Under the pieces are notes generated by a model, which was not told the DNA's origin, did no database searches, and was given only the letters and a program-made list of their open reading frames with translations. From Candidatus Undinarchaeota archaeon (lineage in GTDB: Archaea; Undinarchaeota; Undinarchaeia; Undinarchaeales; Naiadarchaeaceae), in the NCBI GenBank assembly GCA_964401205.1, contig CAYNXO010000001.1, positions 1 to 42,367 of the forward strand: DNA of 42,367 bases. The letters run 5' to 3'. The position numbers were made by a program, and so were the translations under genes. This document shows, one piece after another, positions 4,620 through 33,704 of this stretch. Within the stretch, counting starts at the first letter, position 1. The number at the start of each line of letters is the position of its first letter.

Positions 4620-5207
4620 TTGAAAGAAATGGGACTTGACGAAGTAGAGGCAGACATTCGGAAGAAAATAGATGCAAGAGCAAGTGCAATTACGCAAGAA
4701 GCTGAAAAAGAGGCAAATGCCCTTTTGAACAAGGGAAAGGAACAGCTTTTTGAACTTAAAAAAGCACGGGAAATTGAGGTGCTGAAACTCCTAAATGAGT
4801 TTAAGACGCGGGAAATTGCACAGGCAACTTTGACATCCAGAAAGCTGAAACTGGATGCAAAAAAAGAGGCTGTTGCGGCTGTTTATGGGCGCATTGAGGA
4901 AAAGCTTCTTGGAATAAGTGAAGCTGACAAAAAGGAACTTTTGAGTTCATTAATTGACAGGGCAAAAAGGGAGCTGGCCGGGGCAGAGTATGTTTTCTGC
5001 AACAAAGATGACAAGAAAGTTGTAAGCGGACTTTGCTCAGACACTGGATTGAAATTCAGCGGAGTTATTGAATGTAAAGGTGGGATTATTGTTGAAAACG
5101 AGAGCGGGGAAATACGTGTTGATTATACTTATGAAAACCTGCTTGCAGATTTCAGAAAAACAAGCATCGGTGATGTTGTAAAGCAATTGTTCGGGGGCAT
5201 AAAGTGA
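4620..5207 (+). CDS. atpE: A-type ATP synthase subunit E
   Basis: About 195 aa with a long N-terminal coiled coil and a globular C-terminus. Operon position fits. The TTG at 4620 or the ATG at 4629 could be the start. Confidence 0.8.
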   Translation: MKEMGLDEVEADIRKKIDARASAITQEAEKEANALLNKGKEQLFELKKAREIEVLKLLNEFKTREIAQATLTSRKLKLDAKKEAVAAVYGRIEEKLLGISEADKKELLSSLIDRAKRELAGAEYVFCNKDDKKVVSGLCSDTGLKFSGVIECKGGIIVENESGEIRVDYTYENLLADFRKTSIGDVVKQLFGGIK

Positions 5208-6244
5208 ACACTGGCTATATGTTAAAATCAAGACTTAGCACAAAAGAGGCAGACCAGAAGAGGGACTATTACTATGCAACGACAAGGGCGAGGGCAATGA
5301 TATCAAAGCTGCTCACGGACGATGATTATGCAAAACTTATGAAAATGGATATAAATGAAATATTGCGTTTTTTGGAAGAAGGCGAGTACAAAAAAGAAAT
5401 TGATTCTGTTGGAGTAGGTGCAAGGAAAATTGAAGAGTTTGAAGGGGTTTTAAATGAAAATTTTGCGCGTTCAATCAACCGCTTGCTTGGATTTATGCCA
5501 AAAACCTGCCCTCTCTGGGTATATACAATGAGATATGACATAGCAAACATAAAAACAATATTAAGGGGCAAGGATAGCCATGGAAAAAAGGAAGGTGTGT
5601 GGCGTGCTTTAATTCCAGTTGGAAATTTCAGCAAAGAATTTTTGCATTCCCTAATTAATGCGGAAACAAAAGAAAAAGTTATTGAGCTGCTTGAAAAAAC
5701 ACCTTATTATAGTGTTCTTAAAAGAAATTCTGGAAAAGGCCAGGAAGAACTCGAAGACATTTTAGAACAATTTTATTTTGGAAAAACACTGAAATTTGCG
5801 GTTAAAGATAAAAAATTATATGACTTGCTGAAAAAAGAAATAGATGTAAAAAACATTTTGAGCCTTCTCAGGCTAAGAAGGTCAAAAATTGCGATTAGCG
5901 AAAATTTTTTCATAAAGGGCGGCAATATTGGCCTAAAAAGATTGGCAGAGCTGGGCAAGCTGGATGAATTTGAAATTATCAACAACTTGAAAAACCAAAA
6001 AACCTGGGTTTTTGCACCTACAAATACAAAAGAACTTGATAAAATAGAGGCGGGTTTAAGGAAATACCTCTTCATATGTGGTTGGAACCTAAAAAAAGAA
6101 TATAAGCCCACGGCAGGGGCATTGCTAAGCTATATATTTGGGAAAGAGAGAGAAATAGCAAATATCAGGATTATAGCACGCTCAAAAATTATAAAAAACC
6201 CAGAGGATGCTTTAAGCATACGCTCCAGGGTTTATGTGAAATAG
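5204..6244 (+). CDS. atpC: A-type ATP synthase subunit C
   Basis: 346-aa helical protein. Its GTG start overlaps the atpE stop (alternative ATG at 5219). Operon position fits. Confidence 0.8.
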   Translation: MNTGYMLKSRLSTKEADQKRDYYYATTRARAMISKLLTDDDYAKLMKMDINEILRFLEEGEYKKEIDSVGVGARKIEEFEGVLNENFARSINRLLGFMPKTCPLWVYTMRYDIANIKTILRGKDSHGKKEGVWRALIPVGNFSKEFLHSLINAETKEKVIELLEKTPYYSVLKRNSGKGQEELEDILEQFYFGKTLKFAVKDKKLYDLLKKEIDVKNILSLLRLRRSKIAISENFFIKGGNIGLKRLAELGKLDEFEIINNLKNQKTWVFAPTNTKELDKIEAGLRKYLFICGWNLKKEYKPTAGALLSYIFGKEREIANIRIIARSKIIKNPEDALSIRSRVYVK

Positions 6245-6260
6245 GTGGATTTGGATGAAA

Positions 6261-6354
6261 ATACGCAAAGCGGTTAAATAAAAAAAGCTTTGCTATCTCG
6301 AACAAAAGTGAGAGATGCTCGTAGAGCATTTTCATTCGCTCACGCTCATGAAAA
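6261..6354 (+). repeat. Family-2 structured element, copy D (atpC-atpF intercistronic, overlaps atpF start codon)
   Basis: Hairpin 1 pairs GCAAAGC (6265-6271) with GCTTTGC (6287-6293). Hairpin 2 pairs TTTTCAT (6329-6335) with ATGAAAA (6348-6354), and the ATG is the atpF start. The element recurs at 33596-33657 with a compensatory T-A to C-G change. Confidence 0.7.
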
Positions 6355-6659
6355 TCGCAGTAATGGGTTGCAAGGATTTCGCGCTTGGTTTTGGGCTGGG
6401 TGGCGTAAAGACTCCTTACGAAGTAAATGAAAACAATTATGTAGAATTGTTTGAAAAATGCTACAGTGAAAGGGAAATAGGAATAATCATACTTGAGGAG
6501 CAATATTACAAGAAAATGCCTGCAAGGATAAAAAAGAAGCTTGAGGAGAACATAAGCCCTGTCGTGATTTCAATTTCAAGGGAAGATGTGGGTGCATCAG
6601 ATTTAGGCAAACTAATGCTAAGGGTTTTTGGAACGGACATATGGAAAGAGGGAAAGTGA
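6348..6659 (+). CDS. atpF: A-type ATP synthase subunit F
   Basis: MKIAVMGCKDFALGFGLGG is a typical AtpF N-terminus. The listed ORF start at 6315 is probably an upstream extension. Confidence 0.8.
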   Translation: MKIAVMGCKDFALGFGLGGVKTPYEVNENNYVELFEKCYSEREIGIIILEEQYYKKMPARIKKKLEENISPVVISISREDVGASDLGKLMLRVFGTDIWKEGK

Positions 6660-8435: not shown

Positions 8436-9821
8436 ATGAAAGAATACAAAACCATAAATCAGATTGCAGGTCCTCTTATTTTTGTTGAGAAAACAGATCC
8501 CGTCGGATATGGGGAGCTTGTCAGCATTATGCTTTCCAATGGGGAAATAAAGAAAGGGCAGGTTCTTGATACATCAAGAGATATTGTAGTTGTGCAGGTT
8601 TTTGGGGAAACTGTAGGAATAGACAGAAGCGCGCATGTAAAGTTCTTGGGAGAAACAATTAAGTTAAAACTCTCGCACGAAATGCTTGGTCGAATTTTTT
8701 CAGGATTCGGAGAGCCGATTGACAACGGGCCTGAAATAATTCCCGACGACATTCTTGACATAAGCGGTGCTGCAATTAACCCCTTTTCAAGGTCGCGCCC
8801 AGAGGATTTCATACAAACAGGAATAAGCACAATTGACGGGATGAATACCCTTGTCAGGGGGCAAAAGCTGCCTATATTCTCTGGAAGCGGTCTCCCGCAT
8901 AATGACATGGCATTGCAGGTTGCGAGGCAGGCAAAAGTCCCTGGAAAAGAGGAGTCTTTTGCAGTAGTCTTTGCTGCAATGGGCATTACAAATGAGGAGG
9001 CGCAGCACTTTATTGCTGATTTTGAAAAAACAGGGGCGCTTGAAAGGGCTGTTGTGTTTTTGAACCTTGCAAACGACCCTGCTGTTGAGCGCTTAATTAC
9101 GCCGCGCATGGCCCTTACAACTGCGGAATTTCTGGCATACCAGCATGACATGCATGTTCTTGTTATTTTGACTGATATGACAAATTACTGTGAAGCCCTC
9201 AGGGAAGTCGGGGCAGCAAGGGAAGAAATCCCCGGAAGAAGGGGGTATCCTGGATACATGTACACTGACCTTGCATCAATTTACGAAAGGGCGGGAATCA
9301 TCAAGGGAAGAAAAGGAAGCGTAACGCAGATGCCTATTCTCACAATGTCGGGGGATGATATTACACACCCTATTCCTGATTTAACTGGATATATTACAGA
9401 GGGGCAGATTGTCCTTGGTAGAAGCCTGCATATGCAGGGAATTTATCCGCCGGTTGATGTGCTGCCTTGCCTGTCCAGATTAATGAACAGTGGGATTGGA
9501 AAAGGAAAAACAAGAGATGATCACAAGCCGGTTTCAAACCAGCTCTATGCAAGCTATGCAGAAGGCAGGGATTTAAGAGGGCTGGTGGCAATTGTCGGAG
9601 AAGAGGCTTTGAGCAGCGAAGACAGGTCTTATCTTAAATTTGCAGATTCTTTTGAGCAGAAATTCATCAAGCAGGGAAAATACGAGGACAGGAGCGTCGG
9701 GCAGACACTTGACTTGGGGTGGGATTTGCTCAGCACACTGCCTGAGGAAGAGCTGACAAGGATTGAGAAAGATTTAATTGAAAAGTACTTGAGAAAGAGA
9801 CAGCAAACGCAGGTGAAATAA
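8436..9821 (+). CDS. atpB: A-type ATP synthase subunit B
   Basis: [20 protein letters not shown]-terminus with strong V/A-ATPase B-subunit similarity throughout. The GTG at 8427 is an alternative start that overlaps the atpA stop. Confidence 0.95.
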
Positions 9822-9836
9822 ATTCAGTAAACAGTA

Positions 9837-9876
9837 ATCGGTACCGACTACCGAAAACCGGGTACCGTGTACCGAT
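9837..9876. repeat. TACCG-rich duplicated motif in the atpB-atpD spacer
   Basis: The sequence is CGGTACCG-AC-TACCG, then AAAAC, then CGGGTACCG-TG-TACCG. The outer ATCGGTAC/GTACCGAT arms are complementary. Confidence 0.6.
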
Positions 9877-9895
9877 AATAACCAATTTCACAGAA

Positions 9896-10522
9896 ATGGC
9901 AATACAAGTAAAACCAACCCGTTCAGAGCTTATTAACTTAAAGAAAAAAATCAAGCTAGTGCAGACAGGGCATTCGCTTCTTAAGAGGAGAAAAGACGGG
10001 CTTGTGCATGAGTTTTTTAACATTTTAGGGGATGTAAGGCAGCAGAGGTCTTCTTTGAGGCAGAGCTACAGGTCTGCTGTCAGCAAGCTTGAAGTTGCAA
10101 GGGCATTGGATGGGGCGCAGAACATAGAATCTATCGCACTTGCAATAAAGGATGAGCCAGAAGTCCTGATACAGGGAAGGAGCATAATGGGCGTAAAGGT
10201 CCCGAAAATTGAAACAAAATTTGTTTCGCGCGGCCTGCTGGAACGGGGCTATGGTGTTATAGGAACTTCTTCATACACAGACGAGCTTGTTGAGTCCTGG
10301 GAAAAAGTCCTTGGGGCAATTGTAAAAAATGTTGAAAGTGAAATTTCGCTGAAAAGGGTTCTTTTGGAAATAGAAAAGACAAAGAGAAGGGTAAATGCGC
10401 TTGGAAATATTATAATCCCGCGGATGGAAGAGGCTGCGGCGTTTATACGCCTGAGGCTTGAGGAACTGGAGAAGGAAAACCTATTTAGAATGAAGCGCAT
10501 TAAAAAGAAGAGGGGGAAGTGA
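9896..10522 (+). CDS. atpD: A-type ATP synthase subunit D
   Basis: 208 aa. MAIQVKPTRSELINLKKKIKL and the C-terminal coiled coil are typical of the central-stalk D subunit. Confidence 0.85.
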   Translation: MAIQVKPTRSELINLKKKIKLVQTGHSLLKRRKDGLVHEFFNILGDVRQQRSSLRQSYRSAVSKLEVARALDGAQNIESIALAIKDEPEVLIQGRSIMGVKVPKIETKFVSRGLLERGYGVIGTSSYTDELVESWEKVLGAIVKNVESEISLKRVLLEIEKTKRRVNALGNIIIPRMEEAAAFIRLRLEELEKENLFRMKRIKKKRGK

Positions 10523-25087: not shown

Positions 25088-25372
25088 TTACTCTATGTCT
25101 ACTTCAGCGCTTTTCCCAGATTTCCCAGAGGACATTTCCTTGAGCTTTGCACAGACAAAGTCAATTACTTCTGTGCTGTCTGGAACTGCCAAGCTTCTCT
25201 TGAATCTCTTTGTTCCGTCCGGAGCAAAGAATCCCCTGCTTATTGCAACGAATTCGTTTTCTCCCTGCGGCGTTACTGCCTTTTTCCTTGCGATTTCAAG
25301 GAAGTTGTTGTTTCCAAACTTTATTTCTTCTGCTTTTATTGTCTGAAATTCTACCATTTTGGTTTCCTCCAT
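25088..25372 (-). CDS. Small conserved-looking protein, possibly PC4/YdbC-like ssDNA-binding fold
   Basis: Start placed at MEETKMVEF. The pattern FLEIARKK...EFVAISRGFFAPDGTKRFKRSLAVPDS loosely recalls the PC4 pattern YVSVRDF..LIDIREYW..G..KGISL. This functional call is weak. Confidence 0.45.
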   Translation of the reverse strand: MEETKMVEFQTIKAEEIKFGNNNFLEIARKKAVTPQGENEFVAISRGFFAPDGTKRFKRSLAVPDSTEVIDFVCAKLKEMSSGKSGKSAEVDIE

Positions 25373-25394
25373 CTCGAGCTTTAGCGAGAGACAA

Positions 25395-25440
25395 CATGAA
25401 ACCGAAGGTTTCATGTGCACAAAGGAACTGCTGTTCCTTT
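25395..25440 (-). promoter_or_regulatory. Two adjacent hairpins in the leader of 25088..25372 (also possible terminator of speB operon)
   Basis: AAAGGAAC-TGCT-GTTCCTTT (25421-25440) and CATGAAACC-GAA-GGTTTCATG (25395-25415). A TTTAAAT box lies at about 25470. Confidence 0.6.
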
Positions 25441-25546
25441 GTGTGCTCGCCAGAGCATTTAAACAACCCAGAATTAGGTTCCCCCACTCTTTGATTGCTT
25501 TTTTGCGTCTCCTTATCTGTAAGACGATGTTTTTAAAGGTTTCGCC

Positions 25547-33562: not shown

Positions 33563-33595
33563 TCATGCTGCTCGGTTTTCTAGATTTTTCTAAAG

Positions 33596-33657
33596 ATATG
33601 CAAAGCTGTTAAATAAATGATGCTTTGCTATTTTCACTCGCTTACGCTCGTGAAAAA
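33596..33657 (+). repeat. Family-2 structured element, copy E (downstream of eL41)
   Basis: GCAAAGC (33600-33606) pairs with GCTTTGC (33622-33628). TTTTCAC (33631-33637) pairs with GTGAAAA (33650-33656). It lacks the 33-nt insert present in copy D. Confidence 0.7.
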
Positions 33658-33704
33658 TGCCTTAAAATCGATATGCAGAGCCATATCAAGGAGCCGATTT
33701 TAAG

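Follow-up and report, generated by a model that had tools for sequence, protein, structure and literature searches.

Introduction

The REP-type repeats of bacteria are short, dispersed palindromic elements (survey, PMC3733652), the hairpin-forming repetitive elements of mitochondria are tiny units of one or two hairpins (PMC2800124), and putative mobile promoters are near-identical upstream regions found before unrelated genes, suggesting that promoters can move independently of genes (PMC3575422). Here we analysed a 42,367-nt stretch (the window; contig CAYNXO010000001.1 of assembly GCA_964401205.1) from a Candidatus Undinarchaeota archaeon of the Naiadarchaeaceae. Positions 6255–6355 of the window, between the A-type ATP synthase genes atpC and atpF, are probably a copy of a hairpin cassette that is small, non-coding and modular, is restricted to this family of small-genome archaea and, in this lineage, came to lie at the 5′ end of atpF by insertion. 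The window forms contig C1 of a genome (G000) of 682 kb in 83 contigs, 85% complete and with 42% G+C.

Among other described families, some Correia-type elements carry promoter elements and alter the expression of neighbouring genes, and Rickettsia palindromic elements (RPE) are 100–150 bp long.

Results

The atpC–atpF spacer as a lineage-specific insertion

The genes atpC (subunit C, 5204–6244; Pfam vATP-synt_AC39, E = 1.7e-59; stop codon TAG, 6242–6244) and atpF (6348–6659; Pfam ATP-synt_F) are separated by 103 nt, the longest gap of the operon, which the initial annotation had called unusually long; the 74-nt gap between atpB and atpD is likewise filled by a repeat. (The parts of this region, and of the second copy described below, are all on the forward strand.) The true atpF start is AUG 6348–6350, as indicated by the Pfam ATP-synt_F match of the product and by the homologues of relatives, which align from residue 1. 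The public European Nucleotide Archive (ENA) gene call for atpF (6315–6659; L033) starts at an ATG inside the repeat, within the B hairpin described below and 11 codons too early, and adds 11 residues (MLVEHFHSLTL) seen in no homologue; the 6348 start fits the family. The element is not an assembly artefact, because a contig from an independent ENA assembly matches the window across it at 100% identity. A look-up by exact protein, made to find strains that have or lack the insert, returned one contig only, of 693 nt and identical to the window.

Among 61 related genomes, AtpF could be placed in 33, and the atpC–atpF gap could be measured in about 20 fetched loci. Members of the same family (G001, G002) and order (G003, G006, G009, G012) have gaps of 0–2 nt, and in most other relatives the gap ranges from −4 (overlap) to about +35 nt. 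Since atpC and atpF are near-adjacent in relatives, the 103-nt spacer is an insertion, one specific, on the loci compared, to this lineage. It is bounded by the direct repeat ATGAAAAT at 6255 and 6348, with an inverted copy, ATTTTCAT, at 6328. Removing one repeat copy and the intervening sequence joins the flanks as TAGGTGGATTTGG-ATGAAAATCGCAGTA, i.e. TAG-GTGGATTTGG-ATGAAAATCGCAGTA, giving a 10-nt gap; this exceeds the gaps of relatives in the family and order and falls inside the spread seen in more distant genomes. The left copy of the repeat (T-left, ATGAAAAT, 6255–6262) duplicates the first 8 nt of atpF and provides a decoy start, opening an 8-codon mini-ORF (MKIRKAVK*, 6255–6281) with its stop codon inside the loop of hairpin 1 (see below). 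A Shine-Dalgarno-like sequence, AGGTGGA (6243–6249), which is present at the joined junction and is presumably the original atpF ribosome-binding site, would now serve this decoy start, and the real atpF AUG is left without a nearby Shine-Dalgarno sequence.

In the closest metagenome relative (L034:1133–1220, Ga0209541_10068874; AtpC 62% identical), the same atpC–atpF junction carries a 77-nt hairpin insert of different sequence, with an 8-nt direct repeat (CAAATGAA), TTCAG at the left end, and 12 nt that repeat the atpF leader in inverted orientation. This arrangement indicates what would be an independent event of the same kind.

A modular cassette at the 5′ ends of genes

Both hairpins reported for the spacer by the initial annotation are present. 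Hairpin 1 (module M1, 6265–6293) has a 7-bp stem, GCAAAGC/GCTTTGC (6265–6271 and 6287–6293), closing a 15-nt loop that holds an A/T box (GGTTAAATAAAAAAA). Hairpin 2 consists of T′ (ATTTTCAT, 6328–6335), a core (TCGCTCACGCTC, TCGC-N4-GCTC, 6336–6347; GA-GC-GUGA-GC-GA on the minus strand) and T-right (ATGAAAAT, 6348–6355), the last being the atpF start codon plus 5 nt and forming the 3′ arm of a stem of 8 bp, 1 bp more than had been counted. T′, the inverted copy of the atpF start, can pair with either T-left or T-right, and the pairing of the atpF AUG in hairpin 2 is a consequence of atpF starting with ATGAAAAT. Each hairpin pattern occurs twice in the window, compared with 0.00–0.01 expected from shuffles.

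The second copy placed by the initial annotation after eL41 (copy E, the atpF element being copy D) was found at 33600–33658, with M1 at 33600–33628, T′ (ATTTTCAC) at 33630–33637, the core (TCGCTTACGCTC) at 33638–33649 and T (GTGAAAAAT) at 33650–33658. It has 8 mismatches to copy D in 61 aligned positions (87%, close to the 85% first given), and includes the coordinated change of the closing pair from U..A to C..G (TTTTCAT/ATGAAAA in copy D, TTTTCAC/GTGAAAA in copy E); the earlier view of a repeat family whose stems keep pairing through double changes stands. Homology between the two has no convincing extension beyond 6248–6362 and 33583–33664. A genome-wide pattern search, which had been suggested as a check, recovered both copies and these two full copies only in 682 kb, while separate modules of the element, unlike the full copies, recur many times. 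Copy E is an orphan, lying between convergent genes with no gene downstream. It is flanked by GATATGCA(A/G)AGC at 33594 and 33670 and is directly followed, at 33661–33704, by a 10-bp hairpin (CTTAAAATCG ... CGATTTTAAG) with a second small palindrome in its loop.

A pattern built from the hairpin-1 loop and 3′ arm gave 11 matches, all in G000, G001 and G002 (a sister genus); 10 were analysed (D, E and 8 others), the remaining one being weak. An exact, stricter M1 pattern applied to species representatives, with the genome itself left out, matched one metagenome-assembled genome, on the contigs of the G002 matches, and a search with copy E found both hairpins present separately in G002. Nine of the 10 M1 copies, D and the 8 others, share the full layout T-left – linker (mostly TCAG) – hairpin 1 – TA – T′ – core – T-right, of which hairpin 2 is the T′-core-T-right portion; E is the exception. 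In these nine, T-right consists of the 5–9 nt with which the downstream gene begins, and T′ is the reverse complement of T-right. Cores are either TCGC-N4..16-GCTC or TCAC..GTTC, and the TCGC-N4-GCTC type is also found in copy E, in G002 (contigs C21, C14, C56 and C2) and in many G000 copies. The M1 stem covaries at pairs 3 and 6, where both sides are changed in 3 of 10 copies (GCAAAGC/GCTTTGC versus GCGAAAY/GTTTCGC; changes counted by script).

The genes targeted are mostly those of tRNAs. Cassettes precede tRNA-Ser(CGA) in G002 (C2; GCCGG / CCGGC / TCGCATAAGCTC / GCCGG...) and G001 (C8; GCCGAGG / CCTCGGC), its probable orthologue in G000 (C4; CCTCAGC, one mismatch), tRNA-Arg in G000 (C26; T′ CCCATAGTCC versus GGGCCTATGG of the tRNA) and a tRNA-like gene in G002 (C25; T′ complementary to the gene 5′ end), as well as a protein gene in G001 (C13), where T is the Shine-Dalgarno sequence GGAGGT. 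The same layout being found before these other genes, hairpin 2 is generic. Direct repeats (GCCGAGGT, GCCGCGGT and GCCGG(T)) flank the tRNA cassettes, and at tRNA-Ser all three members of the T triple differ by the same 2 nt between genomes, GCCGG in G002 versus GCCGAGG in G001 and G000, tracking the acceptor sequence. In G002 two tandem cassettes lie before tRNA-Ser(CGA) (L052, G002:C2:23000–23130), each preceded by GCCGGT, so that either the same site was hit twice or the unit was duplicated. With intron mode off, ARAGORN called this gene tRNA-Phe; with it on, the call was tRNA-Ser(CGA) containing a 12-nt intron.

Hairpin 2 also occurs without hairpin 1. In G002 a structure of this type, ATTTTCAC-TCGCTTGCGCTC-GTGAAAAT, contains the GTG start of pelota; G000 pelota starts with ATGAAGATACTC behind an ordinary upstream region with no cassette, on which ground we rejected the idea that copy E is the relic of a pelota start. 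Orthologous sites thus differ in presence and absence, with the cassette at atpF in G000 only and the hairpin-2 type at pelota in G002 only. Eight further G000 genes, unrelated to each other, begin at TCGA-TTTTCGC-TCAC-N4-GTTC-GCGAAAATG, with a constant stem and variable loop (C3:19145, C12:10179, C23:5241, C25:2047, C39:6659, C46:1407, C78:2195 and C81:1056). Their predicted N-termini look like those of aIF2-beta, RNase P Pop5 and ribosomal-type proteins, and a further hairpin array precedes these starts, inserted after the common leader of this genome (...GGTTAAAAT).

Rfam gave no match to the element at the gathering threshold and, at E up to 1, only chance-level hits to mir-31 and STnc210. 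Readings as a C/D-box sRNA, a split-tRNA half or a K-turn were rejected, as there are no C/D boxes, no tRNA and no 3-nt bulge.

A nested 33-nt double-hairpin module

The 33-nt insertion that the initial annotation had seen within copy D (6297–6329) is evident from comparison with copy E, in which it is absent and the empty site reads TAT^TTTC. It is made up of two hairpins, A (ATCTC-GA-AC-AAAA-GT-GA-GAGAT, 6295–6316) and B (ATGCTC-GTA-GAGCAT, 6315–6329), of the general forms stem-GA-RC-loop-GY-GA-stem and (T)GCTC-GTA/GTTA-GAGC(A), respectively. A scan of G000 found 66 A-type hairpins, compared with about 8 in shuffles, and 25 A+B units, compared with 1–2 in sister genomes. The units are mostly followed by A+TTTT and thus, on the other strand, follow AAAA(T), like the cassette after ATGAAAAT.

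Seven of the 25 units lie in frame within long ORFs and are read through, or eight when a unit in a methyltransferase gene that fails the 40-codon flank filter is included. These modules of 33–37 nt (C42:5116–5147, C40:4847, C16:2307 and 4127, C36:257, C11:1745, C2:31741 and C63:873) add 11–13 residues (e.g. NALTSTSRSAR) to the products of conserved genes, which include a HemK-like methyltransferase, a Bud32-like kinase, aminoacyl-tRNA synthetases and a 2′-5′ RNA ligase-like protein. The 33-nt unit in the HemK-like methyltransferase gene (C42:5116–5147) encodes 11 amino acids missing from five orthologues in an alignment, and the A+B module thereby shows the in-frame insertion, absent from orthologues, that marks RPE and mitochondrial double-hairpin elements. 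These comparisons show that the 33-nt module was inserted as a unit, nested within the cassette. Filled and empty sites of another repeat family of the genome, family 1 (TTTTCCCAGG^TTTTTTGCC), show that stems arrive with the module, and led us to reject fold-back of the target as the source of the A+B stems.

Elsewhere in the window, at 25372–25460, an A-type hairpin (TCTCGAGCTTTAGCGAGAGA) is followed by hairpins formed by TGAAACC-N-GGTTTCA and by GCACAAAGGAAC...GTTCCTTTGTG and by one that resembles B, and this string of modules recurs on C3, C19, C29 and C62.

A candidate promoter box in hairpin 1

An A/T box, (G)GT(T/A)AAATAAAT..., makes up the loop of hairpin 1. In the sequences before the 29 tRNA genes, 8-mers of A and T only are most frequent at −42 to −36, and the M1 loop starts at −40 or −41 in copy E and in the G002 copies on C25 and C2 (G002:C25 and G002:C2b), where the tRNA A/T boxes of this genome lie. 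These positions are compatible with the hairpin-1 loop acting as a BRE/TATA-type promoter box and the cassette as a portable promoter, a tentative reading for which the case is, in our judgement, nearly balanced. The start site would then fall within the core, at a distance of about 10 nt from the gene; in copy D, as it was before it gained the 33 nt, transcripts driven by the box would have begun about 10 nt ahead of the AUG.

A further-reaching and rather doubtful proposal is that the cassettes are undescribed archaeal mobile promoters that would insert precisely where tRNA and protein genes begin, with the direct-inverted-direct triple co-evolving by hairpin-templated correction.

Origin of the cassette

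If copy D is an inserted cassette, as we think probable, the cassette would land at the 5′ end of a gene and leave direct and inverted copies of the first bases of that gene; the second, more abundant mobile unit of 33 nt would later have been inserted between hairpin 1 and T′. The operon transcript would tolerate the cassette, in the modelled folds given below, through self-folding of T-left with T′, which would hide the decoy AUG and free the real one. As in miniature inverted-repeat transposable elements, there are dispersed copies with presence/absence and a target-site duplication, the duplication being unclear in copy E; constant terminal inverted repeats were not seen, and T′, the inverted element, is target-specific.

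Several observations weigh against this reading or its promoter extension. A transposase is lacking to the extent that PF01797 (Y1/HUH), the only family searched, had no match in the 85%-complete G000, while control genomes were matched; mobilisation by IS200/IS605 or RAYT was rejected on the same absence from G000. In copy E a T-left is not clearly recognisable, and the boundaries given by its flanking repeat (GATATGCARAGC) are not those of D. The hairpin-filled spacer of the L034 relative may be a sign that structure is selected for between atpC and atpF. The geometry of the putative promoter is non-uniform, with the M1 loop at −48 to −54 in three tRNA cassettes and at −74 in D (the latter because of the nested insert), and a second A/T box lies nearer the gene. 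Finally, the cassette before tRNA-Ser(CGA) is kept in three diverged genomes, which suggests use or function and speaks against purely selfish DNA.

Two routes of origin fit the cassette, a putative integrase or template switching with hairpin-templated correction. In its enzyme-free form the second, which rivals the first in mechanism and not in what the element is, would make the copies scars of recurrent break repair or replication template switching at gene 5′ ends, with hairpin modules copied from other loci through microhomology, with snap-back synthesis and with quasipalindrome correction keeping T-left, T′ and T-right matched. The missing transposase, within the limits of the PF01797 search, is in its favour, as are the target specificity of T′ in spite of its place between conserved parts of the cassette, the covariation of the T triple with the tRNA-Ser acceptor between G002 and G001/G000, and the nesting and shuffling of modules in many combinations. 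Cores of the form GC-GNA/GNNA-GC are also of the DNA mini-hairpin type: on the strand opposite to the genes they read GA-GC-GNRA/GNA-GC-GA, and DNA mini-hairpins of the d(GCGAAGC) type are very stable. However, near-identical multi-module units at unrelated sites resemble copy-and-paste of defined units, and the insertion context, after AAAA(T), is consistent; we consider the enzyme-free origin rather unlikely.

RNA folding and the atpF start codon

Folded alone as RNA, hairpin 1 has a free energy of −9.6 kcal/mol (z = −2.5) and hairpin 2 one of −8.2 kcal/mol (z = −3.0), and isolated-hairpin folds overall have z = −2.5 to −4. A modelled operon transcript (6240–6375) has a minimum free energy (MFE) of −36 kcal/mol (z = −2.96). 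In both its MFE and centroid structures, 6252–6262 pairs with 6328–6338 in an 11-bp helix, including 2 G.U pairs, that encloses the whole insert; AUUUUCAU has the duplicated start region upstream as its partner, and the atpF AUG is unpaired. The best fold of a shorter modelled transcript (6300–6375) likewise lacks hairpin 2.

These folds bear on two regulatory explanations of the locus. The first is a two-state RNA switch, in which T′ would have two alternative partners: T-left, in which case the atpF AUG is free, or T-right, in which case it is sequestered; ribosomes translating the decoy ORF would melt T-left:T′ and hairpin 1, pushing T′ onto the AUG and coupling atpF inversely to decoy translation. 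Mutually exclusive helices do exist (T-left:T′, 11 bp with 2 G.U; T′:T-right, 8 bp), the Shine-Dalgarno sequence belongs to the decoy AUG and the decoy stop lies in the hairpin-1 loop. But these alternatives are an automatic consequence of the direct-inverted-direct layout, which is present at tRNA genes too, and the arrangement is not conserved at atpF, making such a switch improbable.

The second, still less probable, is that of the initial annotation, which proposed that the element sequesters the atpF start and so tunes the amount of subunit F. As a selected translational operator, hairpin 2 would lower subunit F relative to its neighbours, and the AUG does lie in the 3′ arm of an 8-bp stem of clearly negative z when folded alone, pairing is retained through the double change between D and E, the real AUG has no nearby Shine-Dalgarno sequence and a hairpin-rich spacer occurs at the same junction in another lineage. 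Against this, the spacer structure, sought in related genomes as the annotation had advised, is missing from all family and order relatives, where the gap is 0–2 nt, an absence that the annotation itself had named as refuting; the spacer of the closest metagenome relative is of unrelated sequence. Moreover, the same hairpin type precedes tRNA genes, where translation is irrelevant, copy E has no downstream gene to control, and hairpin 2 is outside the preferred folds of either modelled transcript, those of the operon-length one leaving the AUG free. The double change and the pairing of the AUG are both explained by T′ matching T, and are not a sign of selection on atpF translation. The proposal is thus not supported: start-codon pairing appears to be a by-product of insertion, and an evolved switch is not supported, although hairpin 2 can form by itself in these models, so that some effect on atpF translation is possible.

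Least probable of all is an intron-like element, which the splicing endonuclease would remove at a bulge-helix-bulge, restoring the tight junction, with the direct repeat making the splice boundaries equivalent: the insert is flanked by direct repeats and many tRNAs of this genome have long introns, but no 3-nt bulge/4-bp helix/3-nt bulge can be drawn (AUU and 1-nt bulges flank the 11-bp helix), the tRNA-cassette junction, read from the cassette strands, is an internal loop of about 3x2 or 4x3, and the 33-nt modules within ORFs, being multiples of 3 and stop-free, fit translation and not splicing.

Other repeats and tRNA genes

The atpB–atpD gap (9813–9898) holds another type of repeat, with a left end (GTGAAATAAATTCAG), a variable periodic middle and a right end (AACCAATTTCACAGAA), after which comes the atpD ATG. 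The motif of the right end (reverse complement, CTGTTAAATTGG) is found genome-wide before about 45–50 gene starts and 4 tRNA genes, often at contig ends; as it occurs before tRNA genes as well as at many starts, it is not a ribosome-binding site. The tRNA genes themselves are often very long (tRNA-Trp up to 304 nt, tRNA-Cys 254 nt), implying large or multiple introns, and one GA-type hairpin lies inside tRNA-Leu on C5.

Discussion

The elements described here share with the REP/BIME (REPIN), BOX, ERIC and Correia/NEMIS families their short, non-coding palindromic modules, many copies and mosaic or nested intergenic arrays. They differ in their archaeal host and in lacking a RAYT or Y1 transposase (PF01797 search) and a constant GTAG/CGTC tag, GTAG being found in some B loops only; unlike REP/BIME they are also not strictly extragenic, as 7–8 of the 25 A+B modules lie within ORFs. 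Mitochondrial double-hairpin elements (Allomyces, the GC clusters of yeast, sponges) and RPE are similar in being hairpins of a few tens of nucleotides, located between genes and in frame within protein-coding and rRNA genes, variable between lineages and with no known enzyme. The 33-nt A+B module fits this description, although hosts and sequences differ and RPE are 100–150 bp, and we know of no mitochondrial element or RPE reported precisely at gene 5′ ends with direct-inverted-direct copies of the target.

The M1 cassettes, which stand at a roughly fixed distance before tRNA and protein genes, resemble putative mobile promoters. The cassettes are distinguished by their size (about 60 nt), defined hairpins and target copies, by the position of copy D within an operon, where it is split by a nested insert, and by a promoter role that is predicted. 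A target-specific T′ together with a direct copy of the gene 5′ end is, to our knowledge, not a feature of the REP/BOX/ERIC/Correia, mitochondrial, RPE or mobile-promoter families. With hairpins that sequester start codons or Shine-Dalgarno sequences (RNA thermometers, operators, upstream-ORF switches), the atpF locus shares an AUG in the 3′ arm and an alternative upstream pairing that overlaps a short ORF. It differs from them in that the structure is not conserved with the gene, is also found before tRNA genes, is not the preferred fold and belongs to no Rfam family.

A tempting riboregulator story at atpF thus appears to be an insertion scar, in an archaeal genome of about 0.7–0.8 Mb that would be expected to be streamlined, yet is rich in tiny hairpin modules. 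These modules land at gene starts, reproduce the target sequence both directly and inverted, occur in frame within essential genes and may carry promoter boxes. Were the mobile-promoter reading true, it would imply that transcription in archaea with tiny genomes is rewired by insertion, either through a new chemistry or through a templated mechanism that needs no enzyme, and the atpF copy would be an internal operon promoter, with the decoy start and alternative pairings setting expression of subunits F, A, B and D. If the promoter and the mobility of the cassettes are both borne out, they would represent a compact promoter-moving system and a source of structural and protein variation in DPANN-type archaea.

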